64,000 nucleotides of DNA from Nemertoderma westbladi (GCA_032718475.1 JAUCBJ010001772.1:1-64000), one strand, 5' to 3'. Counted from the stretch's first letter, positions 16,501 through 59,397 are shown. The notes: generated from the sequence alone by a model not told the origin. Numbers and translations: made by a program.

Positions 16501-19500
16501 TTCACAACATTTTCACAATTTCAGTTGTTTTCAGCAGCTTTTTCTTTTGAAAGGGTTTGCGGAAAAATATCAATTTTCGGGCCATTTTTGGAAATTACTA
16601 AAATGTGCCTTAGGGCCACCAGAGGCTTAATCCGGCACTGGTAGCTTATGAAACTTATATATTTCTTTTTATAGGTAGCCATGACTACGACTCAGTCCGT
16701 CCTTTGGCTTACCACGACACCCACGTCATTATATTATGTTATGACGTCACCCATCCGGATTCATTGGCAGCTTGTGAATATAGGGTGAGAGTCAAAATCT
16801 GTTATATATACCGTAATGGTTGGACGATGCTTTCCGAGGCGTCATGGTTACAATCGTGATTGATAAGTGCGGGAGTAAGGGTCTATGCCTCGATACCAAC
16901 AAATATAAATATTAAATTAATTATTATTTCCAATACGCATTTCGGGCGTCACATCCGTCTTCAGGGCTAATTAAAAACAAAAAAGAACAAATTTAAATAA
17001 AATAATCATAATTTACTACAATATAGTACGATTATAAACTATCTATTTTACATATTATATTGTCGTAAATCATTTTATTTAAATTTCGGGCGTGACGCCC
17101 GAAATGCGTATTGGAAATAATAATTAATTTAAAATTTATATTTTTTGGTATCGAGGCATATATAGACCCTTACTCCCGCACTTATCATTCACGATTGTTT
17201 CAAAGTTTGTTTTTGAAGATACGTGGCGCAAATAGCAAGTGAAAAATGTGTTACATATGAAATAAAGTTTCATTTGTTGCTTTGGTTAGAAAACACCGCC
17301 GCTGTAACCTGCTCTTTTCCCTTAATGATTTCATTTAAATTAATTTAAACCTCCCGAACACTTACCATTAATTAATTAATTATTTATTTGTAGTGCCAAT
17401 AAAGTCACTAATATCAAACATTTATATCACATGTTTTTTTTCAATGTAATTGAACTACTACTGGGTCGAGCGAACTCAGACATTGGAAATGAGATCCTTC
17501 CAGGCTTCCCGATTATTCGTTTCTCTCAAATGATTTCGTTTCTCTCAAGTTCAGTATCCATTTCAAGCTGGTCTATATCGGCGTTTGTCATGTGTTGTCT
17601 CCAGCTGATGTTTAGGGCTGCCCTTAGTAGTCTTGTGTAGCAACCATCAATTCGATGTTCAAGTGATTTAGTCAGTGTCCAGGTCTCACCCCCGTATAAA
17701 AATACACTTTCCACTGTGGCTCGAAAGAACTTAGTCTTCAGGTGCCTGGAGAGATCTGATTTCCAGATGGTATCCATTTTTGATAGAGCTACCCAAGCCT
17801 TTGCTTTCCTAACTTCTATGTCCTTTTTGCTACTCTCTATCCATGATCCAAGGTACTGGAAGTCGTCAACCTTCCTTAGTTGATTATTATCAATGGTTGT
17901 CAAGTTTCCATCAACATTAAAGGTCATGAATTCGGTCTTTGTAGCATTTATATGCAATCCAACGTCCTTAGCAGCCCTCTCTACTTTATTTAGTAGAAGC
18001 TGTGCATCTGCTAGCGTATTAGAGAGCAGGGCGATGTCATCCGCAAAGTCGGTGTCTGTGACTGTAGTTTCGGATATCTACTACTTCTGAGTTTTTGTAG
18101 TGTGAATCCAAGTTGTTCTCCATTTGTAGCCATCCTCATTTCATAATCTAATACGATTATGAATAGTAATGGCGCCAATGTGTCCCTTACCTTGCAATAC
18201 TCCAGCCAGGATGGAGAATAACTCAGTTTAAGTTTAAAGCAGCAATAGAAACAGTAAGTCTATAATGAACTCTAAAAACTGCATAGGACACCAAATCTCT
18301 GGATGGCACATTCACAAGAATGCTACGTCGGGTTCATTGTGTCAAGTACAATGCACACATCTCCAACCAGACACTATATAACATTGGAGGTGTCTCATTG
18401 GTTCCCCCAAGCTTGACACTAGAACAAAATCGCCTCCGCTTTGCAGGACATTGCTTTCGCCGTGAGGACCAGCCAGTGCATAATCTTGTACTTTGGCAGC
18501 CTCATGGAGTGAATAAGCATGGTGTACAGCCCATGACTTTCTTGAGACGCATCTTAAAGGACACTGGCCTTGAAAATGCGGATGATCTAGCAAATGTCAA
18601 GGGTGATAGGGAGTTGTGGCGGCGCAATTTTCACGATAAGCTGGCATCACATTCTTAATGCACGCTGCATTACTGCATGCCGATTTTGGCATTATAGTGG
18701 TGGCACAAATTTATTGTTATTCAGATAAAATTCATTTGACATTCGCAAGTTCGAGGTGATCGAATTTGTATATGTATACCCAACATTTTAATATAATATA
18801 GGCTGTCACATGTTTAAATCGTTGAAACCCCAAGTTGACAATGTTTATAAAAATATATGGAACGAAAATAGAACCACAAATCGGCCAATGTGAAGTATAC
18901 CAGGCTTTCTGGTGTTATATTTCACTTTGCAGTTTACCGGTTACCCGGTGTAATTTTATTAAATTTCGGTCGGATTTGTTTTAGTGGTACGAAGAGATTC
19001 GTCAGTATTGTCCCAATGTTCCGATAGTTCTAGTCGGTTGTAAATCAGATTTAAAATCGGACAGAAGAACAGTCGAGTCTTTGGTGAAAAACGGCCAACT
19101 GCCAACATCGGCCAGTCAGGTGAGTCGGGTGGGACCTACCATCGGTGAGGATTAGCCAATCAGGTGAGTCGGGTGGGACCTACCATCGGTGAGGATTAGC
19201 CAATCAGGTGAGACGGGTGGGACCTACCATCGGTGAGGATTAGCCAATCAGATGAGACGGGTGGGACCTACCATCGGTGAGGATTAGCCAGTCAGCATGC
19301 GGGTGTGGTGGTCAGCAGTTCTGATTCTGTGCAGGGATGGCATAACGAAACTAAAAAAATACATACAAATAAAAATAACGAAACGAAACGAAATAATAAG
19401 TGTTTCGATTCGTTTCGTGTTTCGTTAATTAAAAAAGTAATTAATCATAACGATATAAATTTATTAATATATTTAAATAATTAAAAAGTTATAAATAATA

Positions 19501-24088: not shown

Positions 24089-27000
24089 TCACATCGCGCT
24101 CACTGGTTGGTAGTGTTCCACACGGTCTAATAGTTCATCCGAATATCCAGGGGTGTAGTACCTAATTAATAAATAAATTAATATTACCAAATAAATAAAT
24201 AGTACCAAAATAAATAAATATTTACCAAAATAAATAAATAAAGTAGTACCAAAATAAATAAATAAATATTTACCGTAATATATAATAAATAGTTACCAAA
24301 ATAAACAAATATATACGTAGTACCAAAATATATAATTAAATAGTACCAAAAAAATAAATGAATTAGTCCGGAGTATTATCTAAAAAATTAATAAAAATAA
24401 ATAGTATCGAATATGGAATAATACCAACTGAACACTAGGTCTATTATCTATAAGTTCTATCTATTATTTATAAGTATACATTATCTATGGTCTATAAGCT
24501 TTATTATTAGTAATTATTTATAGCGGTGATGCACTACAACTCTACTCACTTGACTATCTCCTCTGGGTAGCAGTTATTTATAGCAGTGATGTACTACAAC
24601 TCTACTCACTTGACTATCTCCTCCGGGTAGCAGTTATTTATATCAGTGATGCACTACAACTCTACTCACTTGACTATCTCCTCCGGGTAGCAGTTATTTA
24701 TATCAGTGATGCACTACAACTCTACTCATTGACTATCTCCTCTGGGTAGCAGTTATTTATAGCAGTGATGCACTAAACTCTACTCACTTGACTATCTCCT
24801 CCGGGTAGCAGTTATTTATATCAGTGATGCACTACAACTCTACTCACTTGACTATCTCCTCTGGGTAGCAGTTATTTATATCAGTGATGCACTACAACTC
24901 TACTCACTTGACTATCTCCTCCGGGTAGCAGATATTTATATCAGTGATGCACTACAACTCTACTCACTTGACTATCTCCTCCGGGTAGCAGTTATTTATA
25001 TCAGTGATGCACTACAACTCTACTCACTTGACTATCTCCTCCGGGTAGCAGATATTTATATCAGTGATGCACTACAACTCTACTCACTTGACTATCTCCT
25101 CTGGGTAGCAGTTATTTATAGCAGTGATGCACTACAACTCTACTCACTTGACTATCTCCTCTGGGTAGCAGTTATTTATATCAGTGATGCACTACAACTC
25201 TACTCACTTGACTATCTCCTCTGGGTAGCAGTTATTTATATCAGTGATGCACTACAACTCTACTCACTTGACTATCTCCTCCGGGTAGCAGATATTTATA
25301 TCAGTGATGCACTAAACTCTACTCACTTGACTATCTCCTCCGGGTAGCAGTTATTTATATCAGTGATGCACTACAACTCTACTCACTTGACTATCTCCTC
25401 TGGGTAGCAGTTATTTATAGCAGTGATGCACTACAACTCTACTCACTTGACTATCTCCTCTGGGTAGCAGTTATTTATATCAGTGATGCACTAAACTCTA
25501 CTCACTTGACTATCTCCTCCGGGTAGCAGTTATTTATATCAGTGATGCACTACAACTCTACTCACTTGACTATCTCCTCTGGGTAGCAGTTATTTATATC
25601 AGTGATGCACTACAACTCTACTCACTTGACTATCTCCTCTCGGGTAGCAGTTATTTATAGCAGTGATGCACTACAACTCTACTCACTTGACTATCTCCTC
25701 CGGGTAGCAGATATTTATATCAGTGATGTACTACAACTCTACTCACTTGACTATCTCCTCCGGGTAGCAGTTATTTATATCAGTGATGCACTACAACTCT
25801 ACTCACTTGACTATCTCCTCCTGGGTAGCAGTTATTTATAGCAGTGATGCACTACAACTCTACTCACTTGACTATCTCCTCCGGGTAGCAGATATTTATA
25901 TCAGTGATGTACTACAACTCTACTCACTTGACTATCTCCTCTGGGTAGCAGTTATTTATAGCAGTGATGCACTACAACTCTACTCACTTGACTATCTCCT
26001 CCTGGGTAGCAGTTATTTATATCAGTGATGCACTACAACTCTACTCACTTGACTATCTCCTCCTGGGTAGCAGTTATTTATAGCAGTGATGCACTACAAC
26101 TCTACTCACTTGACTATCTCCTCTGGGTAGCAGTTATTTATATCAGTGATGCACTACAACTCTACTCACTTGACTATCTCCTCCGGGTAGCAGTTATTTA
26201 TATCAGTGATGCACTACAACTCTACTCACTTGACTATCTCCTCTGGGTAGCAGTTATTTATATCAGTGATGCACTACAACTCTACTCACTTGACTATCTC
26301 CTCCGGGTAGCAGTTATTTATATCAGTGATGCACTACAACTCTACTCACTTGACTATCTCCTCTGGGTAGCAGTTATTTATAGCAGTGATGCACTAAACT
26401 CTACTCACTTGACTATCTCCTCCGGGTAGCAGTTATTTATATCAGTGATGCACTACAACTCTACTCACTTGACTATCTCCTCTGGGTAGCAGTTATTTAT
26501 AGCAGTGATGCACTACAACTCTACTCACTTGACTATCTCCTCTGGGTAGCAGTTATTTATAGCAGTGATGCACTACAACTCTACTCACTTGACTATCTCC
26601 TCCGGGTAGCAGATATTTATATCAGTGATGTACTACAACTCTACTCACTTGACTATCTCCTCCGGGTAGCAGTTATTTATATCAGTGATGTACTACAACT
26701 CTACTCATTGACTATCTCCTCTGGGTAGCAGTTATTTATAGCAGTGATGCACTACAACTCTACTCACTTGACTATCTCCTCCGGGTAGCAGATATTTATA
26801 TCAGTGATGTACTACAACTCTACTCACTTGACTATCTCCTCCGGGTAGCAGTTATTTATATCAGTGATGTACTACAACTCTACTCACTTGACTATCTCCT
26901 CTGGGTAGCAGTTATTTATATCAGTGATGCACTAAACGCTACTCACTTGACTATCTCCTCCGGGTAGCAGTTATTTATATCAGTGATGCACTACAACTCT

Positions 27001-30000
27001 ACTCACTTGACTATCTCCTCTACTGGGTAGCAGTTATTTATAGCAGTGATGCACTACAACTCTACTCACTTGACTATCTCCTCCGGGTAGCAGATATTTA
27101 TATCAGTGATGCACTACAACTCTACTCACTTGACTATCTCCTCTACTGGGTAGCAGTTATTTATAGCAGTGATGTACTACAACTCTACTCACTTGACTAT
27201 CTCCTCTGGGTAGCAGTTATTTATAGCAGTGATGTACTACAACTCTACTCACTTGACTATCTCCTCTGGGTAGCAGTTATTTATATCAGTGATGCACTAC
27301 AACTCTACTCACTTGACTATCTCCTCTGGGTAGCAGTTATTTATAGCAGTGATGCACTAAACTCTACTCACTTGACTATCTCCTCTGGGTAGCAGTTATT
27401 TATATCAGTGATGCACTAAACGCTACTCACTTGACTATCTCCTCCGGGTAGCAGTTATTTATATCAGTGATGCACTACAACTCTACTCACTTGACTATCT
27501 CCTCTGGGTAGCAGTTATTTATAGCAGTGATGTACTACAACTCTACTCACTTGACTATCTCCTCTGGGTAGCAGTTATTTATATCAGTGATGCACTAAAC
27601 GCTACTCACTTGACTATCTCCTCCGGGTAGCAGTTATTTATATCAGTGATGCACTACAACTCTACTCACTTGACTATCTCCTCTGGGTAGCAGTTATTTA
27701 TATCAGTGATGTACTACAACTCTACTCATTGACTATCTCCTCCGGGTAGCAGTTATTTATATCAGTGATGCACTACAACTCTACTCACTTGACTATCTCC
27801 TCTACTGGGTAGCAGTTATTTATAGCAGTGATGCACTACAACTCTACTCACTTGACTATCTCCTCCGGGTAGCAGATATTTATATCAGTGATGTACTACA
27901 ACTCTACTCATTGACTATCTCCTCCGGGTAGCAGTTATTTATATCAGTGATGCACTACAACTCTACTCACTTGACTATCTCCTCTACTGGGTAGCAGTTA
28001 TTTATAGCAGTGATGCACTACAACTCTACTCACTTGACTATCTCCTCCGGGTAGCAGATATTTATATCAGTGATGTACTACAACTCTACTCACTTGACTA
28101 TCTCCTCTGGGTAGCAGTTATTTATATCAGTGATGTACTACAACTCTACTCATTGACTATCTCCTCCGGGTAGCAGTTATTTATATCAGTGATGCACTAC
28201 AACTCTACTCACTTGACTATCTCCTCTACTGGGTAGCAGTTATTTATAGCAGTGATGCACTACAACTCTACTCACTTGACTATCTCCTCCGGGTAGCAGA
28301 TATTTATATCAGTGATGTACTACAACTCTACTCACTTGACTATCTCCTCTGGGTAGCAGTTATTTATAGCAGTGATGCACTAAACTCTACTCACTTGACT
28401 ATCTCCTCTGGGTAGCAGTTATTTATATCAGTGATGTACTACAACTCTACTCATTGACTATCTCCTCCGGGTAGCAGTTATTTATATCAGTGATGCACTA
28501 CAACTCTACTCACTTGACTATCTCCTCTACTGGGTAGCAGTTATTTATAGCAGTGATGCACTACAACTCTACTCACTTGACTATCTCCTCCGGGTAGCAG
28601 ATATTTATATCAGTGATGTACTACAACTCTACTCACTTGACTATCTCCTCTGGGTAGCAGTTATTTATATCAGTGATGTACTACAACTCTACTCATTGAC
28701 TATCTCCTCCGGGTAGCAGTTATTTATATCAGTGATGCACTACAACTCTACTCACTTGACTATCTCCTCTACTGGGTAGCAGTTATTTATAGCAGTGATG
28801 CACTACAACTCTACTCACTTGACTATCTCCTCCGGGTAGCAGATATTTATATCAGTGATGTACTACAACTCTACTCACTTGACTATCTCCTCTGGGTAGC
28901 AGTTATTTATAGCAGTGATGCACTAAACTCTACTCACTTGACTATCTCCTCCGGGTAGCAGATATTTATATCAGTGATGTACTACAACTCTACTCACTTG
29001 ACTATCTCCTCTGGGTAGCAGTTATTTATAGCAGTGATGCACTACAACTCTACTCACTTGACTATCTCCTCTACTGGGTAGCAGTTATTTATAGCAGTGA
29101 TGCACTACAACTCTACTCACTTGACTATCTCCTCCGGGTAGCAGATATTTATATCAGTGATGTACTACAACTCTACTCACTTGACTATCTCCTCTGGGTA
29201 GCAGTTATTTATAGCAGTGATGCACTACAACTCTACTCACTTGACTATCTCCTCCGGGTAGCAGTTATTTATATCAGTGATGTACTACAACTCTACTCAC
29301 TTGACTATCTCCTCTGGGTAGCAGTTATTTATATCAGTGATGCACTACAACTCTACTCACTTGACTATCTCCTCTGGGTAGCAGTTATTTATAGCAGTGA
29401 TGCACTAAACTCTACTCACTTGACTATCTCCTCTGGGTAGCAGTTATTTATATCAGTGATGCACTAAACGCTACTCACTTGACTATCTCCTCCGGGTAGC
29501 AGTTATTTATATCAGTGATGCACTACAACTCTACTCACTTGACTATCTCCTCTGGGTAGCAGTTATTTATAGCAGTGATGTACTACAACTCTACTCACTT
29601 GACTATATCCTCTGGGTAGCAGATATTTATATCAGTGATGTACTAAACTCTACTCACTTGACTATATCCTCTGGGTAGCAGATATTTATATCAGTGATGT
29701 ACTACAACTCTACTCACTTGACTATCTCCTCTGGGTAGCAGTTATTTATAGCAGTGATGTACTACAACTCTACTCACTTGACTATCTCCTCTACTGGGTA
29801 GCAGTTATTTATAGCAGTGATGCACTACAACTCTACTCACTTGACTATCTCCTCCGGGTAGCAGATATTTATATCAGTGATGTACTACAACTCTACTCAC
29901 TTGACTATCTCCTCTGGGTAGCAGTTATTTATATCAGTGATGTACTACAACTCTACTCATTGACTATCTCCTCCGGGTAGCAGTTATTTATATCAGTGAT

Positions 30001-33000
30001 GCACTACAACTCTACTCACTTGACTATCTCCTCTACTGGGTAGCAGTTATTTATAGCAGTGATGCACTACAACTCTACTCACTTGACTATCTCCTCCGGG
30101 TAGCAGATATTTATATCAGTGATGTACTACAACTCTACTCACTTGACTATCTCCTCTGGGTAGCAGTTATTTATAGCAGTGATGTACTACAACTCTACTC
30201 ACTTGACTATCTCCTCTGGGTAGCAGTTATTTATATCAGTGATGCACTACAACTCTACTCACTTGACTATCTCCTCTGGGTAGCAGTTATTTATAGCAGT
30301 GATGCACTAAACTCTACTCACTTGACTATCTCCTCTGGGTAGCAGTTATTTATATCAGTGATGCACTAAACGCTACTCACTTGACTATCTCCTCCGGGTA
30401 GCAGTTATTTATATCAGTGATGCACTACAACTCTACTCACTTGACTATCTCCTCTGGGTAGCAGTTATTTATAGCAGTGATGTACTACAACTCTACTCAC
30501 TTGACTATCTCCTCTGGGTAGCAGTTATTTATATCAGTGATGCACTAAACGCTACTCACTTGACTATCTCCTCCGGGTAGCAGTTATTTATATCAGTGAT
30601 GCACTACAACTCTACTCACTTGACTATCTCCTCTGGGTAGCAGTTATTTATAGCAGTGATGTACTACAACTCTACTCACTTGACTATCTCCTCTGGGTAG
30701 CAGTTATTTATATCAGTGATGCACTAAACGCTACTCACTTGACTATCCCCTCCGGGTAGCAGTTATTTATATCAGTGATGCACTACAACTCTACTCACTT
30801 GACTATCTCCTCTGGGTAGCAGTTATTTATAGCAGTGATGCACTACAACTCTACTCACTTGACTATCTCCTCTGGGTAGCAGTTATTTATATCAGTGATG
30901 CACTACAACTCTACTCACTTGACTATCTCCTCTGGGTAGCAGTTATTTATATCAGTGATGCACTACAACTCTACTCACTTGACTATCTCCTCTGGGTAGC
31001 AGATATTTATATCAGTGATGTACTACAACTCTACTCACTTGACTATCTCCTCTGGGTAGCAGTTATTTATAGCAGTGATGCACTACAACTCTACTCACTT
31101 GACTATCTCCTCTGGGTAGCAGTTATTTATATCAGTGATGCACTACAACTCTACTCACTTGACTATCTCCTCTGGGTAGCAGTTATTTATATCAGTGATG
31201 CACTAAACTCTACTCACTTGACTATCTCCTCTGGGTAGCAGTTATTTATATCAGTGATGTACTACAACTCTACTCACTTGACTATCTCCTCTGGGTAGCA
31301 GTTATTTATATCAGTGATGCACTAAACGCTACTCACTTGACTATCTCCTCCGGGTAGCAGTTATTTATATCAGTGATGCACTACAACTCTACTCACTTGA
31401 CTATCTCCTCTGGGTAGCAGTTATTTATAGCAGTGATGCACTAAACTCTACTCACTTGACTATCTCCTCTGGGTAGCAGTTATTTATATCAGTGATGCAC
31501 TAAACGCTACTCACTTGACTATCTCCTCCGGGTAGCAGTTATTTATATCAGTGATGCACTACAACTCTACTCACTTGACTATCTCCTCTGGGTAGCAGTT
31601 ATTTATAGCAGTGATGTACTACAACTCTACTCACTTGACTATATCCTCTGGGTAGCAGATATTTATATCAGTGATGTACTAAACTCTACTCACTTGACTA
31701 TATCCTCTGGGTAGCAGATATTTATATCAGTGATGTACTACAACTCTACTCACTTGACTATCTCCTCTGGGTAGCAGTTATTTATAGCAGTGATGTACTA
31801 CAACTCTACTCACTTGACTATCTCCTCTACTGGGTAGCAGTTATTTATAGCAGTGATGCACTACAACTCTACTCACTTGACTATCTCCTCCGGGTAGCAG
31901 ATATTTATATCAGTGATGTACTACAACTCTACTCACTTGACTATCTCCTCTGGGTAGCAGTTATTTATATCAGTGATGTACTACAACTCTACTCATTGAC
32001 TATCTCCTCCGGGTAGCAGTTATTTATATCAGTGATGCACTACAACTCTACTCACTTGACTATCTCCTCTACTGGGTAGCAGTTATTTATAGCAGTGATG
32101 CACTACAACTCTACTCACTTGACTATCTCCTCCGGGTAGCAGATATTTATATCAGTGATGTACTACAACTCTACTCACTTGACTATCTCCTCTGGGTAGC
32201 AGTTATTTATAGCAGTGATGTACTACAACTCTACTCACTTGACTATCTCCTCTGGGTAGCAGTTATTTATATCAGTGATGCACTACAACTCTACTCACTT
32301 GACTATCTCCTCTGGGTAGCAGTTATTTATAGCAGTGATGCACTAAACTCTACTCACTTGACTATCTCCTCTGGGTAGCAGTTATTTATATCAGTGATGC
32401 ACTAAACGCTACTCACTTGACTATCTCCTCCGGGTAGCAGTTATTTATATCAGTGATGCACTACAACTCTACTCACTTGACTATCTCCTCTGGGTAGCAG
32501 TTATTTATAGCAGTGATGTACTACAACTCTACTCACTTGACTATCTCCTCTGGGTAGCAGTTATTTATATCAGTGATGCACTAAACGCTACTCACTTGAC
32601 TATCTCCTCCGGGTAGCAGTTATTTATATCAGTGATGCACTACAACTCTACTCACTTGACTATCTCCTCTGGGTAGCAGTTATTTATAGCAGTGATGTAC
32701 TACAACTCTACTCACTTGACTATCTCCTCTGGGTAGCAGTTATTTATATCAGTGATGCACTAAACGCTACTCACTTGACTATCCCCTCCGGGTAGCAGTT
32801 ATTTATATCAGTGATGCACTACAACTCTACTCACTTGACTATCTCCTCTGGGTAGCAGTTATTTATAGCAGTGATGCACTACAACTCTACTCACTTGACT
32901 ATCTCCTCTGGGTAGCAGTTATTTATATCAGTGATGCACTACAACTCTACTCACTTGACTATCTCCTCTGGGTAGCAGTTATTTATATCAGTGATGCACT

Positions 33001-36000
33001 ACAACTCTACTCACTTGACTATCTCCTCTGGGTAGCAGATATTTATATCAGTGATGTACTACAACTCTACTCACTTGACTATCTCCTCTGGGTAGCAGTT
33101 ATTTATAGCAGTGATGCACTACAACTCTACTCACTTGACTATCTCCTCTGGGTAGCAGTTATTTATATCAGTGATGCACTACAACTCTACTCACTTGACT
33201 ATCTCCTCTGGGTAGCAGTTATTTATATCAGTGATGCACTAAACTCTACTCACTTGACTATCTCCTCTGGGTAGCAGTTATTTATATCAGTGATGTACTA
33301 CAACTCTACTCACTTGACTATCTCCTCTGGGTAGCAGTTATTTATATCAGTGATGCACTAAACGCTACTCACTTGACTATCTCCTCCGGGTAGCAGTTAT
33401 TTATATCAGTGATGCACTACAACTCTACTCACTTGACTATCTCCTCTGGGTAGCAGTTATTTATAGCAGTGATGCACTACAACTCTACTCACTTGACTAT
33501 CTCCTCTGGGTAGCAGTTATTTATATCAGTGATGCACTACAACTCTACTCACTTGACTATCTCCTCTGGGTAGCAGTTATTTATAGCAGTGATGCACTAC
33601 AACTCTACTCACTTGACTATCTCCTCTGGGTAGCAGTTATTTATATCAGTGATGCACTACAACTCTACTCACTTGACTATCTCCTCTACTGGGTAGCAGT
33701 TATTTATAGCAGTGATGTACTACAACTCTACTCACTTGACTATCTCCTCTGGGTAGCAGTTATTTATATCAGTGATGCACTAAACTCTACTCATTGACTA
33801 TCTCCTCTGGGTAGCAGTTATTTATATCAGTGATGCACTACAACTCTACTCACTTGACTATCTCCTCTGGGTAGCAGTTATTTATAGCAGTGATGCACTA
33901 CAACTCTACTCACTTGACTATCTCCTCTGGGTAGCAGTTATTTATATCAGTGATGCACTAAACTCTACTCATTGACTATCTCCTCTGGGTAGCGATTATT
34001 TATATCAGTGATGCACTACAACTCTACTCACTTGACTATCTCCTCTGGGTAGCAGTTATTTATAGCAGTGATGCACTACAACTCTACTCACTTGACTATC
34101 TCCTCTGGGTAGCAGTTATTTATATCAGTGATGCACTACAACTCTACTCACTTGACTATCTCCTCTGGGTAGCAGTTATTTATATCAGTGATGCACTAAA
34201 CTCTACTCACTTGACTATCTCCTCTGGGTAGCAGTTATTTATATCAGTGATGCACTACAACTCTACTCACTTGACTATCTCCTCTGGGTAGCAGTTATTT
34301 ATAGCAGTGATGCACTACAACTCTACTCACTTGACTATCTCCTCTGGGTAGCAGTTATTTATATCAGTGATGCACTACAACTCTACTCACTTGACTATCT
34401 CCTCCGGGTAGCAGTTACTTATATCAGTGATGCACTACAACTCTACTCACTTGACTATCTCCTCTGGGTAGCAGTTATTTATAGCAGTGATGCACTACAA
34501 CTCTACTCACTTGACTATCTCCTCTGGGTAGCAGTTATTTATAGCAGTGATGCACTACAACTCTACTCACTTGACTATCTCCTCTGGGTAGCAGTTATTT
34601 ATATCAGTGATGCACTACAACTCTACTCACTTGACTATCTCCTCTGGGTAGCAGTTATTTATAGCAGTGATGTACTCAGCCAGAGCGCTCCCCGGCTCAG
34701 AGTTGATTTCCTGGACTTTCTTCAGACCCCCGCTGGTAACAAATAGCCGTCTCGCCTTTGGATCGTGTGGCAATACCTGCATTTATTATTATATAAGGGT
34801 GAGTTTTACATCTATAATAAATTTTTGTGAGACGAAGTTCTAGTGGGACATGGTTTCCTCGTGTTTCGCGCTGTTATGTACAGACAGACCGTTCTATATA
34901 ATGTATTGTGTGTCAGGTAATCATCTGGGGTGAGCCACGCACCTTGCTGAACTGTGCGACAACGTGTTTGAGTATATTAGGAGGGGCGTCCCGTAACAAT
35001 GGCTCCAGAGAAGGTAAGTGGACGCACTTCTGTAAAATATTCTTCAACGCCGTCTTTGACTTCTCCTATAAAACATACAAATACATATGTAGCAACAATT
35101 TAATTATTATTCTATTTTATGAACTATATTGAAAGAATAGGAATAAAATACAATTTCCATTAATTTAATTGCTCATTACTTTTCTAGGTAAAGAAAATTC
35201 GTGTTGTAACAGTTAAGGATTTTATTGAATTCATTTTAAGGGATTTTAATATTCGCTGCTTTCAAACTACTCATAAATTTACGACTGAAAATTATAGAGA
35301 TTTGATGCAAACGATTTTTTAAGCATACATAATTGCACAGCAGACAAACCCATATAAATAATACCATGTAAGGCAGCTAGTTGAGTTAAAGCAGTAAGCA
35401 TTGTCGTCAGCGAATGACAACAGATTATTCTAAAAATGGAAAATATAAAAAAAAATTAAAATAGAAAACTAACTACAGTTTCTAACAATCTGGCGCATTT
35501 TAATTAAAAAAAAAAAAAAAAAAACACGGGACGTTATAGGAACCCTGTCGTTAGAGCCTCGGTTTTTCAATCGGAAGGTGGTGATTTCGAGTCCCACCAT
35601 GGAGCAGTTAACTATAAGGAACTAGCTTCAGCCTCCCTAGCTGTGGTGGCTGGAATATGTTAGGGGAGTAAAAAATTGTTACATAATGAGAGTATTGGAC
35701 CTTGGGAGTTGGTGTGGCACCATCCCTGCCTTACAGGTATCGGCCAAGAGAGAGGAGTTTATGTGTTTCAGTTCACCAATAACTATACGTTACTGGTTGC
35801 CAAGTAACCTAGACGGGTTGCTTAGCGACCTACCTGCAGATCCTCCGATGCGTCCGCCCGTAGGTAGCACGCCAGTAACCTAGGCAACACGTTAGCGGCG
35901 GCCACGGCCTTGGCGTGTTCCGGAGTATGGCGACCGATCTGTCCGAGCCCCCAAGCGGCCGATCCCTGAACATGGTCTTCAGTCTCCTCCATTAGGGTAA

Positions 36001-39000
36001 TGGCGAGTTGTTGGACGCCCTGGAAATGATTTCACATTGCAAATAACCAAAACAATAAACACCATCGACCTTACATATTAGCAAACTTACCTTCGATAAA
36101 ATAAACTTACCTTAGATACAATAAACTAACCCTAGATACAATAAACTTACCTTAGATACAATAAACTTACCTTAGATACAATAAACTTACCATAGAATAA
36201 ATAAACTTACCTTAGATACAATAAACTTACCTTAGATACAATAAACTTACCTTAGATACAATAAACGTACCTTAGATACAATAAACTTACCTTAGATACA
36301 ATAAACTTACCTTAGATACAATAAACTTACCTTAGATACAATAAACTTACCTTAGATACAATAAACTTACCTTAGATACAATAAACTTACCTTAGATACA
36401 ATAAACTTACCTAGATACAATAAACTTACCTTAGATACAATAAACTTACCTTAGATACAATAAACTTACCGTAGATACAATAAACTTACCTTAGATACAA
36501 TAAACTTACCTTAGATACAATAAACTTACTTTAGATACAATAAACTTACCTTGGATAAAATAAACTTACCTTAGATACAATAAAGTTACCTTAGATACAA
36601 TAAACTTACCTTAGATACAATAAACTTACCTTAGATACAATAAACTTACCTTAGATACAATAAACTTACTTTAGATACAATAACCTTACCTTAGATACAA
36701 TAAACTTACCCTAGATACAATAAAGTTACCTTAGATACAATAAACTTACCTTAGATACAATAAACTTACCTTAGATACAATAAACTTACCTTAGATACAA
36801 TAAACTTACTTTAGATACAATAAACTTACCTTAGATACAATAAACTTACCTTAGATACAATAAACTTACCTTAGATACAATAAACTTACCTTAGATACAA
36901 TAAACTTACATTAGATACAATAAACTTAACTTAGATACAATAAACTTACCTTAGATACAATAACTTACCTTAGATACAATAAACTTACCTTAGATACAAT
37001 AACTTACCTTAGATACAATAAACTTACCATAGAATGAATAAACTTACCTTAGATACAATAAACTTACCTTAGATACAATAACTTACCTTAGATACAATAA
37101 ACTTACCATAGAATGAATAAACTTACCTTAGATACAATAAACTTACCTTAGATACAATAAACCTCCCATAGAATAAATAAACTTACCTTAGATACAATAA
37201 ACTTACCTTAGATACAATAAACTTACCATCGAATAAATAAACTTACCTTAGATACAATAAACTTACCATAGAATAAATAAACTTACCTTAGATACAATAA
37301 ACTTACCTTAGATACAATAAACTTACCTTAGATACAATAAACTTACCTTAGATACAATAACTTACCTTAGATACAATAAACTTACTTTAGATACAATAAA
37401 CTTACCTTAGATACAATAAACTTACCTTAGATACAATAAACTTACCTTAGATACAATAAACTTACCTTAGATACAATAAACTTACATTAGATACAATAAA
37501 CTTACCTTAGATACAATAAACTTACCTTAGATACAATAACTTACCTTAGATACAATAAACTTACCTTAGATACAATAACTTACCATAGAATCAATAAACT
37601 TACCTTAGATACAATAAACTCACCTTAGATACAATAACTTACCTTAGATACAATAAACTTACCATAGAATGAATAAACTTACCTTAGATACAATAAACTT
37701 ACCTTAGATACAATAAACTTACCATAGAATAAATAAACTTACCTTAGATACAATAAACTTACCATAGAATAAATAAACTTACCTTAGATACAATAAACTT
37801 ACCTTAGATACAATAAACTTACTTTAGATACAATAAACTTACCCTAGATACAATAAAGTTACCTTAGATACAATAAACTTACCTTAGATACAATAAACTT
37901 ACCCTAGATACAATAAAGTTACCTTAGATACAATAACTTACCTTAGATACAATAAACTTACCATAGAATGAATAAACTTACCTTAGATACAATAAACTTA
38001 CCTTAGATACAATAAACTTACCTTAGATACAATAAACGTACCTTAGATACAATAAACTTACGATAGAATAAATAAACTTACCTTAGATACAATAAACTTA
38101 CCTTAGATACAATTAACTTACCTTAGATACAATAAACTTACCTTAGAGAAAATAAACTTACCTTGATATACAATAAACTTACCTTAGATACAATAAACGT
38201 ACCTTAGATACAATAAAGTTACCTTAGATACAATAAACTTACCTTAGATACAATAAACTTACCCTAGATACAATAAAGTTACCTTAGATACAATAACTTA
38301 CCTTAGATACAATAAACTTACCATAGAATGAATAAACTTACCTTAGATACAATAAACTTACCTTAGATACAATAAACTTACCTTAGATACAATAAACGTA
38401 CCTTAGATACAATAAACTTACGATAGAATAAATAAACTTACCTTAGATACAATAAACTTACCTTAGATACAATTAACTTACCTTAGATACAATAAACTTA
38501 CCTTAGAGAAAATAAACTTACCTTGATATACAATAAACTTACCTTAGATACAATAAACGTACCTTAGATACAATAAACTTACCTTAGATACAATAAACTT
38601 ACCTTAGATACAATAAACTTACCTTAGATACAATAAACTTACCCTAGATACAATAAACTTACCTTAGATACAATAAACTTACCTTAGATACAATAAACGT
38701 ACCTTAGATACAATAAACTTACCATAGAATAAATAAACTTACCTTAGATACAATAAACTTACCTTTACAATTAACTTACCTTAGATACAATAAACGTACC
38801 TTAGATACAATAAACTTACCATAGAATAAATAAACTTACCTTAGATGCAATAAACTTACCTTAGATACAATTAACTTACCTTAGATACAATAAACTTACC
38901 TTAGAGACAATAAACTTACCTTGAGATACAATAAACTTTCCTTAGATACAATAAACTTACCATAGAATAAATAAACTTACCTTAGATACAATAAACTTAC

Positions 39001-42000
39001 CATAGAATAAATAAACTTACCTTAGATACAATAAACTTACCATAGAATAAATAAACTTACCTTAGATACAATAAACTTACCATAGAATAAATAAACTTAC
39101 CTGAGATACAATAAACTTACCTTAGATACAATAAACTTACATTAGATACAATAAACTTACCTTAGATACAATAAACTTACCATAGAATAAATAAACTTAC
39201 CTTAGATACAATAAACTTACCATAGAATAAATAAACTTACCTTAGATACAATAAACTTACCTTAGATACAATAAACTTACATTAGATACAATAAACTTAC
39301 CTTAGATACAATAAACTTACCATAGAATAAATAAACTTACCTTAGATACAATAAACTTACCATAGAATAAATAAACTTACCTTAGATACAATAAACTTAC
39401 CTTAGATACAATAAACTTACCTTAGATACAATAAACTTACCTTAGATACAATAAACTTACTTTAGATACAATAAACTTACCCTAGATACAATAAAGTTAC
39501 CTTAGATACAATAAACTTACCTTAGATACAATAAACTTACCCTAGATACAATAAAGTTACCTTAGATACAATAACTTACCTTAGATACAATAAACTTACC
39601 TTATATACAATAAACTTACCTTAGATACAATAAACGTACCTTAGATACAATTAACTTACCTTAGATACAATAAACTTACCCTAGATACAATAAAGTTACC
39701 TTAGATACAATAACTTACCTTAGATACAATAAACTTACCTTGGATACAATAAACTTACCTTTGATACAATAAACTTACCTTAGATACAATAAACTTACCA
39801 CAGAATAAATAAACTTACCACAGAATAAATAAACTTACCTTAGATACAATTAACTTACCTTAGATACAATAAACTTACCATAGAATAAATAAACTTACCT
39901 TAGATACAATAAACTTACCATAGAATAAATAAACTTACTATTAGATACAATAAACTTACCTTAGATACAATAAACTTACCTTAGATACAATTAACTTACC
40001 TTAGATACAATAAACTTACCTTAGATACAATTAACTTACCTTAGATACAATAAACTTACCATAGAATAAATAAACTTACCTTAGATACAATAAACTTACC
40101 ATAGAATAAATAAACTTACTTTTAGATACAATAAACTTACCTTAGATACAATTAACTTACCTTAGATACAATTAACTTACCTTAGATACAATAAACTTAC
40201 CTTAGAGACAATAAACTTACCTTGAGATACAATAAACTTACCTTAGATACAATAAACTTACCATAGAATAAATAAACTTACCTTAGATACAATAAACTTA
40301 CCTTAGATACAATAAACTTACCTTAGATACAATAAACTTACCTTAGATACAATAAACTTACCTTAGAATAAATAAACTTACCTTAGATACAATAAACTTA
40401 CCTTGGATACAATAAACTTACCTTTGATACAATAAACTTACCTTAGATACAATAAACTTACCACAGAATAAATAAACTTACCACAGAATAAATAAACTTA
40501 CCACAGAATAAATAAACTTACCTTAGATACAATAAACTTACCTTAGATACAATTAACTTACTTTAGATACAATAAACTTACCTTAGAGACAATAAACTTA
40601 CCTTGAGATACAATAAACTTACCTTAGATACAATAAACTTACCATAGAATAAATAAACTTACCTTAGATACAATAAACTTACCTTAGATACAATAAACTT
40701 ACCTTAGATACAATAAACTTACCTTAGATACAATAAACTTACCTTAGATACAATAAACTTACCTTAGATACAATAAACTTACCTTAGATACAATAAACTT
40801 ACCTTAGAAACAATAAACGTACCTTAGATACAATAAACTTACCATAGAATAAATAAACTTACCTTAGATACAATAAACTTACCTTAGATACAATAAACTT
40901 ACCTTAGATACAATAAACTTACCATAGAATAAATAAACTTACCTTAGATACAATAAACTTACCATAGAATAAATAAACTTACCTTAGATACAATAAACTT
41001 ACCTTAGATACAATAAACTTACCTTAGATACAATTAACTTACCTTAGATACAATAAACTTACCTTAGATACAATAAACTTACCCTAGATACAATAAAGTT
41101 ACCTTAGATACAATAAACTTACCTTAGATACAATACACTTACCATAGATACAATAAATTACCTTAGATTCAATAAACTTACTTTAGATACAATAACAGCC
41201 ATGGATAGATTCTCAGAGTGAGCGGCTACGTATCCTAGCAACATGACTCCCGGCAACCTTACGTTGCCCTTGGTGTCTCCTATGAAGTCTACGATAGCGG
41301 CCACCCCTCCCGCGTTAACGACTAGTTGGGCCAACTCCGGTGTGTGTTTAGCAATCTCTCGGATGAGCGTAGCGACGTTCTTCTTAACGTAGTCGTCCGG
41401 GTCTCTCAGACAGGTCAGTACGGCCGGGAAGATCTCGGCCTCCACCACCATCTCGGCTAGGTCTACCGAATGTTTGGCGATCTGCGACAGCGCTGAGAAA
41501 ACTTGGCGCTGAAATGGGAGACAGAAATATTAACGGATTAGAGGATATGGAGACTTAATATATTATCAACACATATGAGAGTTTCGGTGGTAAACTATTA
41601 ATTGCAATGAGTAAATTAGGACGTATTTATTAGTTATACTGTAGGTGTATAAAGTTAAAGTTCATAAATAACATAAAGTAATTTTCTTTATTGTTTGTCA
41701 ATTTATTCAGAATGTTAATTAATCAATTTCTCAAGTAAATAATATAGAAAACAAATAGCATTTTTCCTTACGATGCCTCGAAGTATAATTAACTTCGATC
41801 GTTACGCTCGCGTAGCAGAAGCTGCGGGAATATCAGCCATTCTAAGGAAAATAAGTTCCCTTTATTTCACTTCCTTCCATATATTTCTAGGAAAGTCCAA
41901 TAATACTTATTCCTGAATCATCGCTTATAAAATAATATATATTATTAATATTAATATTATAGTACGGAATAATATTATTAAGATACAACGATTAGGCCTA

Positions 42001-44081
42001 CACAGTGAAACATAATTACAAAACGCTTCTCATGAAAAAGTAATTAATTATCTTACATTAAATAAATAATCGATATTTTTTATTCATATTATTAGAATTA
42101 TTATAAGCCAACGTTTATCTTACTTCAATATTACAAATATTTGTGCAGCATCACGCCTTTACTGCGATTAAGTAGATGTACTTAGGACTAAGTTAAGTTA
42201 AATACGAAATCTGGTTAATAATATAAATTAGATTTCGTTTTTCTACTAGTTTGCCAACCTTTAGCTTTTCGTCGTTATTCAATATCATCTGGGCGAGATG
42301 GGCGACCGCGCCCGCGTCCACCACGGTCTGGGCGAGTTCGGGCGAATGTTTCGCTATATCGCTCACGCTGCTCGCTGCGATCCTCTTCAACCCCAACTCC
42401 GGTTCCTGGATACACAACACTAACAGCGGCACGGCGCCGGCGTCCACTACAGCCTGGGCCAGTTCCGCGTTGTGTCTGGAAAGAAATACAAACTCAAATA
42501 AATTTTAACAAATATTGTATTGAAACGTAATTAAATTATAGTGGAGTTATTCAATAACTATTTAATAATATCTGTTAATTAAGATTGCCTTTAAGATTGA
42601 TTACTCCCAAAAATAAAACTGTAACCTGTTCTATTGACTTCAGTTTCTAGTTTTGGATAAAATAACGTGCCACTGTAACCTGCTCCCTTCCTTCCCTATT
42701 GGTATCTAACTTTGAGACGAGAAATGAATTCGCCGAGATGGGATTTGATTGGGGGTTGATGGTAACTTAGAAACACACTACTTACCTAGCGACGTAACCT
42801 AGTAACGGACAACTTACCTAGCACGTAACCTAGTTACAGACAACTTACCTAGCGACGTAACCTAGTTACAGACAACTTATCTAGCGACGTAACCTAGTTA
42901 CAGACAACTTACCTAGCGACGTAACCTAGTAACAGACAACTTACCTAGCGACGTAACCTAGTAACAGACAACTTACCTAGCACGTAACCTAGTTACAGAC
43001 AACTTACCTAGCGACGTAACCTAGTTACAGACAACTTACCTAGCGACGTAACCCAAAGCCCATGCGGCGGACTCCTTAACCGAAGGATCGAATTCTTCCA
43101 GACATATAACCAAGGCGTCCAGAGCCCCGCAGTCCACCACTGATTGGGCCAACTCCGGACTGTGTCGCGCCACCGCGCGGAGAACAAACGCAGCCGCTTT
43201 CTTATAGAATCGCTATGAATCGAAAAAAATGAGTTACTAATAAAATAAAGCAGTACTTTATAGCACGGTAACGGGATATAAACAACAACTTTTTACAACA
43301 GTAATTATGATACTAAGTTGCGAAATTAATTAAATAAATAAAAGTTACAATATAATACGTTAACAAAAAGTAAGTTAAGTTATATAATTACACCGATTTG
43401 CAATATTTAAATCCAAATATAATAGGTATAATAGTTAAAACAAATGACTTACATTTTGTTCGGCCAACGAGTAAACTAATTGAGGTAAAATATCACCCTT
43501 GACTACAGCTTCGGCGAGATCGTCGTTGTGATTGGCTAGACGTCCCAATGCGAGGGCAGCCGTCTGCTGTATGGTTGGCACGATGTCCAATAGGAGAGGC
43601 CGAAGTAATGACATGACCCCGGCATTCTGTAGAGTTTCGATATTCTGGGGTCGGGTCGCCAATTCAGCGACCGTTTGTACGAATGTTGTCCGCGCTTTCT
43701 GGTATTCCTCAAACGCTGCGTGTTGGAAGGAATAGTATATATTGTGTTAGACCTAGGAATTTTAAATGTACTAAATAACTATTAGCATTGGATTAAAATT
43801 GAAAACAGATTAAATATAGAAAATTAGAAATTTGACTGAAACGAAAGAGAACGATTTAAATGGAAGACAGAGAAAAGAGAATAGCTGGAATTACAGTCTT
43901 AGTACGAAATAAATCAATGCTAAATCTACCAAAACAACAACAACTGGTGAACTAAATAATTACCAATCGATTTAATGACACTAATGAGGTCTGTCAGTGT
44001 AGTTAATATGTAATAATTATTACCTTTAATTATTGGTCGATCTTTCTTTTTAAGTTCAAAATCCCCCCTTGGAACTTCCAT
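24089..44081 (-). CDS. SPAG6: Sperm-associated antigen 6 (PF16, armadillo-repeat central-pair axonemal protein); exons 44024-44081, 43453-43715, 43040-43212, 42259-42475, 41182-41508, 35834-36019, 34943-35065, 34631-34776, 24089-24161; 521 aa
   Basis: Spliced translation MEVP..RPIIKAFEEYQKARTTFVQTVAELATRPQNIETLQNAGVMSLLRPLLLD...LAEQN|RFYKKAAAFVLRAV...MAVIVSK|GVQQL...CYPEEIVK|YYTPGYSDELLDRVEHYQPVSAM* is collinear with SPAG6. All introns are GT-AG and phase-compatible; the CDS totals 1566 nt. Confidence 0.96.
24162..24362 (-). repeat. Degenerate ~20-25-bp repeats resembling the SPAG6 terminal-exon acceptor junction
   Basis: Minus-strand TATTTATTTATTTTGGTA(CTAC) about 8 times, against the true acceptor TTTATTTATTAATTAG|GTACTAC. 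Confidence 0.65.
24514..34675 (-). repeat. 60-bp tandem array (~170 copies): last 44 nt of SPAG6 exon 8 plus first 16 nt of intron 8
   Basis: Minus-strand unit T(A/G)CATCACTG(C/A)TATAAATAACTGCTACCC(A/G)GAGGAGATAGTCAA|GTGAGTAGAGTTGTAG. The exonic part encodes YITAINNCYPEEIV and is continuous with the true exon. Confidence 0.97.
35540..35760 (+). mobile_element. Probable tRNA-derived SINE in SPAG6 intron 6
   Basis: GTCGTTAGAGCC...GATTTCGAGTCCCACC has A/B-box-like spacing; diverged. Confidence 0.45.
35796..35888. promoter_or_regulatory. Cluster of three RFX X-box motifs at SPAG6 exon 6/intron 6
   Basis: GTTGCC-A-AGTAAC (35796-35808), GTTGCT-T-AGCGAC (35817-35829) and GTAACC-TA-GGCAAC (35875-35888) fit GTNRCY(N1-2)RGYAAC on one strand or the other. 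Confidence 0.5.
36083..41194 (-). repeat. 20-bp tandem array (~255 copies) of the SPAG6 exon-5 donor junction
   Basis: Minus-strand unit ATTGTATCTAAG|GTAAGTTT, against the true junction ATTGTATCTAAA|GTAAGTTT. A variant unit reads ATTTATTCTATG|GTAAGTTT. Confidence 0.97.
42781..43053 (-). repeat. 32-bp tandem array (8 extra copies) of the SPAG6 exon-3 donor junction
   Basis: Minus-strand unit GGTTACGTCGCTAG|GTAAGTTGTCTGTAACTA. The exonic part encodes GYVAR. Confidence 0.95.
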
Positions 44082-44454
44082 CGTGTGAGAGGAAATTCCT
44101 GGGCTTGAGTTTTAGTAAAATGTTTGTAATTTTTGGATGGAATTGCAATTGACTTTGTATACAAGTACCGTAATGGAATCGGACGCAAACAATATCTGTT
44201 AGTAGGTCAATTAGAATAACCTAAAATACAACACATAACATTTACGTTTATTAAAAAGAAATAGCAAATAAAATCATTAAAGCATTTTTAAACCAAATCA
44301 TGCAGAAGTTAAATATAAAACTACCGTAGCAACAAACTAAACTATATTAAAGGCAAACAGTTAATATCGAAGATTTTAAGTAAAATATTTAAAGCGTCTT
44401 GGTAAATTACTCCTAAAATGTAGACTACAACGGTCGTAGATGTATAGACACGAC

Positions 44455-44540
44455 GTAGGCCCACTTCCGGCCATTGACGTTTTGCAAGCCAAAGGGCAGG
44501 AAGTCTCAACCCGCTGCTGCCGTAGTTAGGCAACCCCATG
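44455..44540 (-). promoter_or_regulatory. Candidate SPAG6 promoter elements (ETS and X-box-like motifs)
   Basis: A GC-richer patch ~400 bp upstream of the ATG contains CACTTCCGG (ETS consensus) and GTAGTTAGGCAAC (partial X-box). Confidence 0.4.
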
Positions 44541-47065
44541 TGATAATTGTTGGAATAAACACACACAAATATAGTATATTAAGAACAAACGAAAATTGGA
44601 AAAAGTAATATTAGACAAAAAGACGGCAGAACAAGCTAACCAACTACAACAGTAATAACAGTCCTGATTCATAAATAGTTGGTCAAACTTAAATTGTTGC
44701 CACAAAAAAAAAGAGTAAAGTTTTCAACGGCGGTTAGGTCAGGGTTTACGCACAAAGTCTGACAACTTATTTGCAGCGCGGTCCCCCCAGAACTATACTC
44801 CCGAGAGGAAACTTCCTTACTCATTTAGCTACTATTTAAGGATGCAAGGCGCCGCCCTGGCTAGTCCCTTTAAATCATTCCTGTCGAATCGACAACTGCC
44901 CTCACATAAGGAGATAGAACCCACGACCTCCGGAGAGATGTAAATTCAATGCAACGGATTTAATCACTACGTTTAATCGGTATTTGCATGTAATTCATTG
45001 GTATTTCAATCAACTGTCTAAATATAAGAAAATTTATCAACTGGTGACATGGCGTCAATGAGCAAATAACCGCCAATTAAAAAACAAAATAAATGCCGCT
45101 ATTTATTAAATTAAAATAAACAATTAATAAAGGCTATCAATAATTTATGTCACCCACATTACCCCGTATTTATATGCAGTATCGAAATGTTGCAACTTGG
45201 GAACAAAGAATGTATATCTTGTATTTAGATAGGTAGTGGCAGCACAGACCGTCGAAACCAAGACAATAAACAACGATTTGATTTACTACTGTATTTTAAG
45301 AAATGAGCATTCAACAGTTTCAGAAGTTGGTTTAAATCTACCTACCCGCAAATATAGTTTAATACGGAGAAACGATAGCCGAATAAACACAGAAAAATAG
45401 TGTTAAATTCCGTTGTAAAACAAAAAAAAGTACCGGTAATATTATAATGTATAAAATGTTGATATAATAAATACAAAAATGTTAGCTATTTTACGGTCCC
45501 CCTAGCTATTATGATTGCTCGCTACTATGTTTTTGTTTTACAAAATTTATCACACTACATTACGTTTACCGATAACATTGCTACTGAGATGCAACCTGCA
45601 AGGAAAATGACAATAATGGCACAGTGATTATTCATACCGTTAGGGAATATCATCAATCACAGCGGTACTTACACTGCAAAACTTGTCTGGAACTCATTCT
45701 GTTTTCACTGCGTGGTAGGAGAATCCAGTGTTATCTTATAGCAGCAATGAGTAAAAAGTATTTGATACAGTAACTTATAAGCAGGGAACCGAAATCACCT
45801 CAGACCAAAACAAATTCGTGATATGCAAAGGCAAACACAGATACCGGTAGCTACAATACTAATTACAGAAAGCTGATTGTTAGAAAATTAATAATGTTGT
45901 TTGTATTTAGTTGCTAGGTAGCACCCTTTTTAAATCTCCCGCGAGATACTCATTGGTCAAACATAGTATCAGGTATTCACGACATCCATGATGTTCCAAT
46001 AAGTAAAGCCCTGCACCCCAGTCATGTCAGGCACCCAAATACCTGAAAGTCAACTATCTGAGGTGCCTCCGGCTGTCCTTGTCTTACATCACAGCATCAC
46101 TAGGCCTCAGTTAGGCAAAACAGCAATATTGTACATTCATAAAGCAATATAAAACCAGTCAATTGGCAATTAATAAGAAATAATAATGCTTTTGAAGTAC
46201 TGCGTTACGAACTGTTATAAAATTAGAAAAGAAACACTTTGTAGAGCCACATTGCAGTATTGATTCCCCAAGCTGCTACGGGTTACAGTTTATAAACTCC
46301 GAACACATTGGCTTTATTATATACACTGCGGTGGCGGTGTGCAGTAGAATAAACGTTGACCCGAAAATTTCGCAAAGGTTCACGATTACGGCAAAGAACG
46401 GTCAAGGCAATCACCGAATGTATCCGATACCGACTCCTCCACCACAACCTCGGGGATCCGAGGGACTAAATCAAATCGGACAATGGAAATTGGTTGTCGA
46501 TGGCAGAATGACCGACATTTAACGTACATCCAGTCGTCGGACTTTATCGAAGGGGGGCGGTTGGTCTTTTAGAGATCTTTTAGATCCTTTAGAGATGACA
46601 AATATCCAAGCCCGATACGAAATGTGTGGGGTACATTTTAAAGCACATGGGCACTGGGATAATGTGAACCCTAACTGTTCTAATTTTGATAAAATTCAAA
46701 CCACTATCTCTGGACTGGACTGAGCTATTGAGATGCAGTTTTTCCTATGGTGGTTCTCCATTGTTTTATAAATACAATGAGAGTGAATTTGAGCACCGGT
46801 GCCCAAAGGCATTCCCACAAAATGTAATTAACAAAAAGTAAATTGTTGAGCACCGGTGCACAATCCGCAGTAACAAGCGGTACTGCAACATATTTATAAT
46901 ATTTAATAAATTCTATTTGGCTATAAATTATTATTAATAAGAATATTAATCACACGATTACTGTATGTGCGACCATCAAAGTTACCGTTAGATAAAGTTA
47001 GAAAGTTCGATCGATTCGTTACCAATTAAAGTTGAAATTATAAATAATGCAATATAAATAAATAA

Positions 47066-59350: not shown

Positions 59351-59397
59351 GATTCCACCTTTCCGGGTTACGGAAAGGTTAAATCTAACCAAAACAA

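Follow-up and report, generated by a model that had tools for sequence, protein, structure and literature searches.

A splice-junction-spanning minisatellite of 255 repeated donor positions in SPAG6 intron 5 of Nemertoderma westbladi, with the first donor used in spliced contigs

SPAG6 is a cilia gene. In a 64,000-nucleotide (nt) stretch of the Nemertoderma westbladi assembly (GCA_032718475.1, JAUCBJ010001772.1:1-64000; the window in what follows), intron 5 of this gene is filled by a 20-nt minisatellite that repeats the end of exon 5 and the start of the intron, so that 255 donor-equivalent positions follow the authentic donor. The array is a splice-junction-spanning minisatellite of the "mirage" or F7 type, a kind already known, in an unusually large case. 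In spliced contigs of two studies, the first donor is the one joined to exon 6, and, in our judgement, it is likely that a mirage-type array is being read here from its first donor in the assembled mRNA, the likely route being commitment to the most upstream usable site.

The SPAG6/PF16 gene model (Table 1) uses AG acceptors and GT donors throughout its nine exons. The junctions of exons 4-9 were taken from spliced contigs and those of exons 1-3 from homology and splice signals. The translation of exon 5 matched SPAG6/PF16 in 780 hits among 1107 candidates, and the comparisons with homologues were made on the best 120 of the 780. As expected of a SPAG6/PF16 orthologue (about 508 amino acids, aa), the nine-exon product is a full-length armadillo-repeat protein matched by Pfam Arm. 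It aligns without gaps to SPAG6 of Pomacea (87.9% identity) and of Ptychodera (87.0%), 88% being the top identity among the matches listed. In a quick tree of 42 SPAG6 rows, namely 41 of the 120 listed matches and the window, no group was supported. Homologues read SK-G across the exon 5/exon 6 junction. SPAG6 introns that lack a donor array, five in number, measure 166-1957 nt.

Tandem Repeats Finder describes the array as 256.1 copies of period 20 with 91% matches. Each unit is composed of 12 nt from the end of exon 5 and 8 nt from the start of intron 5, and the units run head to tail, the first lying across the real exon 5/intron 5 boundary as placed by homology and spliced contigs. GT is present at 251 of the 255 donor-equivalent positions downstream of the true donor and the full GTAAGT at 228, leaving 27 without it. 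With the cut marked by a bar, the commonest class is AAG|GTAAGT (165 of 255), followed by ATG|GTAAGT (31) and AAA|GTAAGT (8); this count upholds the description in the initial annotation of a true AAA|GTAAGT site followed mostly by AAG|GTAAGT copies in the window. A single unit type accounts for 131 of the 255 units, the 43 unit types found are arranged in a structured order, and a 17-unit block is duplicated (at units 131 and 149). The first three and the last two units are unique types, and the array combines concerted turnover inside with divergence at its edges.

That the divergent unit retains the donor hexamer for a reason was not borne out. Among the 233 of 255 units that are exactly 20 nt long, 8 of 18 possible substitution alleles were seen in the hexamer and 20 of 42 in the rest of the unit (p = 1); substitutions are equally common in both, and selection for the hexamer was rejected. 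Weakening of the nearest decoys was not accepted either: GTAAGT is lost in two of the first four copies, as compared with 27 among all 255 (p = 0.057), and divergence is in any case usual for edge units. The arithmetic behind the 71-nt remainder between the last decoy and the acceptor is correct, and a reading of this remainder as decayed repeat was not accepted (shuffle p = 0.26). The opposite (+) strand of the array contains AATAAA 230 times and the sense strand not at all.

Donor strength was scored as matches to the U1-complementary 11-mer and as U1 duplex energy. Relative to the true site of the window, the 251 GT decoys comprise 146 better, 98 equal and 7 worse by 11-mer matches, and 238 stronger, 9 equal and 4 weaker by duplex energy, a typical decoy reaching -10.6 kcal/mol versus -5.6 for the true AAA site. 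The initial claim of some 255 decoys surpassing the real donor is therefore right in the number of positions and, for 238 of 251, in duplex energy, and overstated for the 11-mer. Six copies match the true AAA site exactly over -12 to +8.

Six sequencing runs came up for this stretch, five of them containing it and none of those five registered as RNA. Four runs were aligned as contigs to two stretches at the array edges: the genomic runs X1 (sample S1) and X2 (sample S2), and runs X4 (sample S3, study P3) and X5 (sample S2, study P2). X4 and X5 were taken as RNA because their coverage is exon-only and introns 4, 6 and 7 are skipped at canonical ends. In both, spliced contigs join 41182 to 36019, that is, the first donor to exon 6. 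Since the record positions are consecutive across intron 5 (1500/1501 in X4 and 882/881 in X5), with no decoy letters inserted, and the loose contig ends carry the true exon 5 sequence, the first donor was the one used. No X4 or X5 contig lies on the array bin at 41110-41164, at an X4 exon depth of 435. X5 bears the weaker AAA form, yet the first site is used, and X2 DNA from the same sample has the array at both ends. The contigs show the main steady-state form, rare forms being dropped by contig assembly; in that form the SPAG6 mRNA is normal and the authentic site is used in X4 and X5 alike.

The array itself is present in the DNA of two samples. Single-copy contigs of X1 and X2 enter both of its ends, and summed contig depth in the array bin versus the flank is 7883 versus 39.8 in X1 and 17116 versus 30.7 in X2, values that indicate many copies and are not copy numbers. 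The array-to-flank ratio differs between the two runs, again as summed contig depth and not as copy number, and the match of the X2 single-copy contig ends at 41170. X2 is not the window's own haplotype, because, over the second stretch, the two are distinguished by 10 listed substitutions and 2 indels; X1 may be the source of the window sequence. The count of 255 copies is that of the window, no aligned contig bridging the array. Two findings that the initial annotation had named as fatal to its reading, mis-spliced or absent SPAG6 mRNA and an array missing from the reads, did not materialize: contigs of two studies are correctly joined, and both genomic runs contain the array.

The coding consequences of decoy use were predicted correctly at the outset. 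Splicing at the first decoy shifts the frame and gives a product of 350 aa instead of 510, while the other 250 GT decoys read VSLLNLR followed by a stop, which gives 342 aa. The resulting stop, codon 343 or 351, is followed by more junctions. Because every decoy route leads to a premature stop, minor decoy use could stay hidden. Concealment of the decoys by RNA structure was rejected, the centroid being fully unpaired and the fold of the array reaching z -2.0 (7 of 200 shuffles as good).

The last base of exon 5, at 41182, is A in the window and in run X5 and G in run X4, a synonymous difference between the lysine codons AAA and AAG. It is the sole X4 difference from the window across 999 aligned exonic bases, and with it exon 5 ends exactly as the array consensus does. 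With G at 41182, and on the assumption that the intron of S3 begins as in the window, 124 copies equal the real site over -12 to +8. Comparison of the four runs placed exonic differences at three positions, 41182, 41409 and 42395, of which one is inside the 12-nt seed. At 42395, the difference between run X1 and the window would turn SPAG6 codon 181 from Leu into Ser; X4 agrees with the window there.

Because the X4 transcript carries G at 41182, the weak AAA looks like an allele. The assertion of a real donor inherently inferior to its copies is not supported, as the AAA form is not fixed; the weak-donor puzzle applies to a single allele, from which correctly joined mRNA is nevertheless made. 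Most likely, AAA and AAG are two alleles that differ in the final base of the exon, the G form being retained in the array or supplied by it; on the simplest view, the array has preserved the founder base. Exchange of sequence from array to exon at 41182 is possible, if faintly indicated, because the array contains both forms. Alternatively, the G in X4 may stem from A-to-I RNA editing; a short predicted hairpin spans 41182, but its region folds no better than shuffled sequence (z 0.33).

The closest published parallel is the 37-bp variable number tandem repeat of human F7 intron 7, the first unit of which lies across the exon-intron boundary (Borensztajn et al., 2006; PMC1557585). According to the passages of that account drawn on here, F7 minigenes chose the most upstream donor at 1 to 12 monomers, also over stronger copies with consensus values up to 91; when the first site was inactivated, the next upstream copy took over, and deletion or addition of monomers had no effect. 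The same passages call the molecular determinant of upstream choice open. The choice of the first site, which the initial annotation regarded as an open question, is thus open as to its determinant, whereas the preference as such was already on record. The SPAG6 array is like that of F7 in its boundary-spanning first unit, in the repetition of the donor into the intron and in the presence of the most upstream site in mRNA. Its unit is shorter (20 nt, compared with 37 nt in F7, 81 nt in PDGF and 100 nt in LMNB2), and its 255 copies compare with 5-25 in the human cases as given there, where pseudo-sites number 25 in 6-16, 15-20 in CBS intron 13, 10-15 in LMNB2 and 16-18 in PDGF intron 4 (PMC1557585). 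Unlike the human cases so described, most copies here are naturally stronger than the real site in one allele, the host is an invertebrate, and several junctions of one gene are affected.

Amphioxus provides a second parallel. "Mirage" minisatellites have been described in the globin genes BflGb6 and BflGb9 (Ebner et al., 2010; PMC3087553), in PGBD5 and troponin C (PMC3902484) and in Adh3 (Canestro et al., 2002, as cited in PMC3087553 and PMC3902484). In the portions of these two reports consulted, they consist of tandemly duplicated exon-intron boundaries, donor and acceptor sides alike, with units of 10-160 bp, edge copies that escape homogenization, splicing that is reportedly undisturbed and an origin stated as unclear. 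The arrays of the window resemble them, as there described, in affecting several genes of one invertebrate, donors as well as acceptors, and in their divergent edge copies; BflGb6 has 3-6 units, compared with 255 and 169 here. No case with hundreds of copies and no genome-wide survey of such arrays among invertebrates was found in the literature searched, which covered few subscription journals.

Together, these observations are consistent with the following course. A short tandem duplication across the junction would have left the exon intact in its first copy, and because that copy leaves the exon whole, the duplication would be tolerated. Slippage and unequal exchange may then have enlarged the array, a course to which the duplicated 17-unit block and the distribution of the variant units point. 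The spliceosome would commit to the most upstream usable donor, the remaining copies leaving with the intron; by analogy with human F7, position and not the match to U1 would pick the donor. Nonsense-mediated decay would clear any rare decoy products, and the array is most likely neutral.

Several points weigh against this account. Only the steady-state result was seen, in contigs that drop rare forms, and all decoy products would be decay targets. X4 and X5 carry the label "DNA?", their identification as RNA resting on the spliced pattern. The F7 work is mammalian and extends to at most 12 copies, and, in the passages available, F7 copies with a perfect consensus took about 70-90% of splicing, while in human 6-16 and CBS splicing makes use of two nearby copies (PMC1557585). 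Neutrality leaves unexplained why all four arrays that Tandem Repeats Finder detects inside the SPAG6 coding span are located at splice junctions.

The intron 5 array is not alone (Table 1), a point missed in this part of the initial annotation. The exon 3 donor is spanned by a 32-nt array, in which one copy has AT instead of GT, and the exon 8 donor by a 60-nt array, twice the length of the 20-nt array, in which CAA|GTGAGT, as in the true site, occurs at 152 of 163 scored copies. X4 and X5 contigs use the first donor at the 60-nt array as well (34631 to 24161), and decoy use at the 32-nt or 60-nt array would also bring an immediate stop. Ahead of exon 9, a degenerate repeat resembles the acceptor (pyrimidine tract plus exon start). 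All eight of its upstream copies have TG or CG where AG is expected, and the AG-free run before the acceptor measures 216 nt, versus 15-48 nt at the seven other SPAG6 acceptors. The 7-mer at the start of exon 9 is found four times upstream, one or more occurrences being seen in just 0.3% of 20,000 shuffles. Obligatory loss of AG from acceptor copies, taken as a strict rule, fits the window but is contradicted by amphioxus BflGb6; whereas the acceptor-side copies here all lack AG, many amphioxus copies retain splice signals in the sections of the reports used (PMC3087553, PMC3902484). A fourth donor-spanning array lies in the neighbouring gene, at what appears to be an exon of a Rho-like GTPase; a further exon of that gene may lie near 16675-16790. 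In total, such arrays occur at three of the eight SPAG6 donors, the other five being free of them, and at one donor of the adjoining gene. The chance of this junction placement, roughly and post hoc, is 1e-4 for the three donors and 5e-5 for the four junctions. The tallied tandem arrays cover about 36% of the window, so a general tendency to expansion seems to exist in this genome.

Table 1. Coordinates of SPAG6, its junction-spanning arrays and the junction array of the neighbouring gene, counted from the first letter of the window
Feature	Coordinates	Strand	Remarks
SPAG6/PF16 coding span	24089..45697	(-)	9 exons, 510 aa, no internal stop
SPAG6 exon 1	45697-45673	(-)	homology and splice signals
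SPAG6 exon 2	43715-43453	(-)	homology and splice signals
SPAG6 exon 3	43212-43040	(-)	homology and splice signals
SPAG6 exon 4	42475-42259	(-)	spliced contigs
SPAG6 exon 5	41508-41182	(-)	327 nt; spliced contigs
SPAG6 exon 6	36019-35834	(-)	spliced contigs
SPAG6 exon 7	35065-34943	(-)	spliced contigs
SPAG6 exon 8	34776-34631	(-)	spliced contigs
SPAG6 exon 9	24161-24089	(-)	spliced contigs
Intron 5	41181-36020	(-)	5162 nt
20-nt minisatellite	36083..41195	(-)	fills intron 5; 255 decoy donor positions
Authentic donor, AAA|GTAAGTTT	41174..41184	(-)	cut between 41182 and 41181; spliced contigs X4, X5
First decoy, AAG|GTAATT	41156..41164	(-)	degraded, +5 G lost; cut 41162|41161
Last decoy GT to acceptor AG	36020..36090	(-)	71 nt
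Second donor-spanning array, exon 3 donor	42762..43053	(-)	32-nt unit x9; 8 decoys, 7 with GT
Third donor-spanning array, exon 8 donor	24514..34676	(-)	60-nt unit x169; 43 nt exon + 17 nt intron
Degenerate repeat resembling exon 9 acceptor	24164..24363	(-)	20-27-nt unit
Fourth donor-spanning array, neighbouring gene	19111..19295	(+)	44-nt unit x4.2; putative Rho-like GTPase exon
Putative Rho-like GTPase exon, neighbouring gene	18985-19119	(+)	Pfam Ras E 0.006, below curated cut-off

The placement of the arrays leads to a broader proposal, in which a mutational process of this lineage seeds tandem expansions at splice junctions across the genome and the arrays in turn feed sequence into the coding exon, the AAA/AAG switch having been copied from the array. 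We regard it as a tentative idea that probably does not hold, the junction placement speaking for its first half and the presence of both forms in the array (8 AAA and 165 AAG copies with GTAAGT) for its second.

Leaky donor choice is the main rival of the favoured reading and, in our view, unlikely. A sizeable share of transcripts, larger in AAA alleles, would be spliced at the stronger decoys and then destroyed by nonsense-mediated decay, array length and the -1 base thereby tuning SPAG6 output. The duplex energies, the premature stops ahead of further junctions and the nearby copies used in 6-16 and CBS all point this way, as does a predicted hairpin that pairs the true donor with the upstream exon, although, as noted above, it folds no better than shuffles. 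Yet the AAA allele gives a full, correctly joined X5 contig, array-bearing contigs are absent from X4 at its high exon depth, the nearest decoy is degraded in the window, and the stronger F7 copies went unused in the material seen (PMC1557585).

That the arrays were selected as landing pads for U1, promoting definition of the upstream exon or shielding a long AT-rich intron from premature cleavage, is highly improbable. The recurrence of such arrays at donors of two genes and the retention of GTAAGT in most copies would suit this function. However, changes in the hexamer are as frequent as elsewhere in the unit, the three SPAG6 donor arrays offer, on their sense strand, no AATAAA that would need shielding, most SPAG6 donors manage without an array, and the removal or addition of F7 monomers was without effect in the passages cited. 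A decaying SPAG6 allele or an assembly artefact can practically be set aside: apart from the missing bridge across the full array length, the frame is intact and correctly spliced in two studies, single-copy genomic contigs run into both ends of an array covered far above its flank, X2 has the array on another haplotype, and the 43 unit types are ordered.

The remainder of the window holds features of other kinds. On the strand of SPAG6, some 1.4 kb ahead of the start codon of that gene, a single long open frame (47066-48097, (-); 343 aa from stop to stop) has NHL/beta-propeller Pfam matches. An intronless gene resembling GLMP/NCU-G1 (glycosylated lysosomal membrane protein) lies at 3797-5110 (+), with 27-32% identity to its matches. 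Two open frames at 6642-7313 and 8138-8650 (+) resemble a WD40 protein, which we take to be of the DPH7/WDR85 type, and three stretches (17526-18658, 49586-50057 and 53336-53893) are, by eye, presumably open-frame remnants like the C-termini of long interspersed nuclear element reverse transcriptases. A 54-nt array at 57754-59358 contains donor-like words and was considered as a junction array, but further copies of its unit near 11, 18 and 48 kb led to its classification as dispersed and as probably belonging to a mobile element. At 60002-64000, a 59-nt array of at least 68 units, with copies 99% identical, continues past the end of the window, and no splice site was found to be associated with it.

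In copy number, the intron 5 array exceeds the human cases listed in the consulted part of PMC1557585 about tenfold, and together with the exon 8 array it extends use of the first donor to 255 and 169 copies in an invertebrate, for steady-state mRNA at least. The AAA and AAG forms provide a natural pair for weighing position against U1 strength. The finding would gain weight if the five arrays in two adjacent genes reflect junction-targeted mutation, the origin of mirages being stated as unclear in the portion of PMC3087553 used here, or if the array converts the coding exon. Should seeding at junctions and feedback into the exon both prove true, the two natural alleles would test position against more than 200 stronger U1 sites, and the acceptor-side array would survive only because its founder had lost AG.

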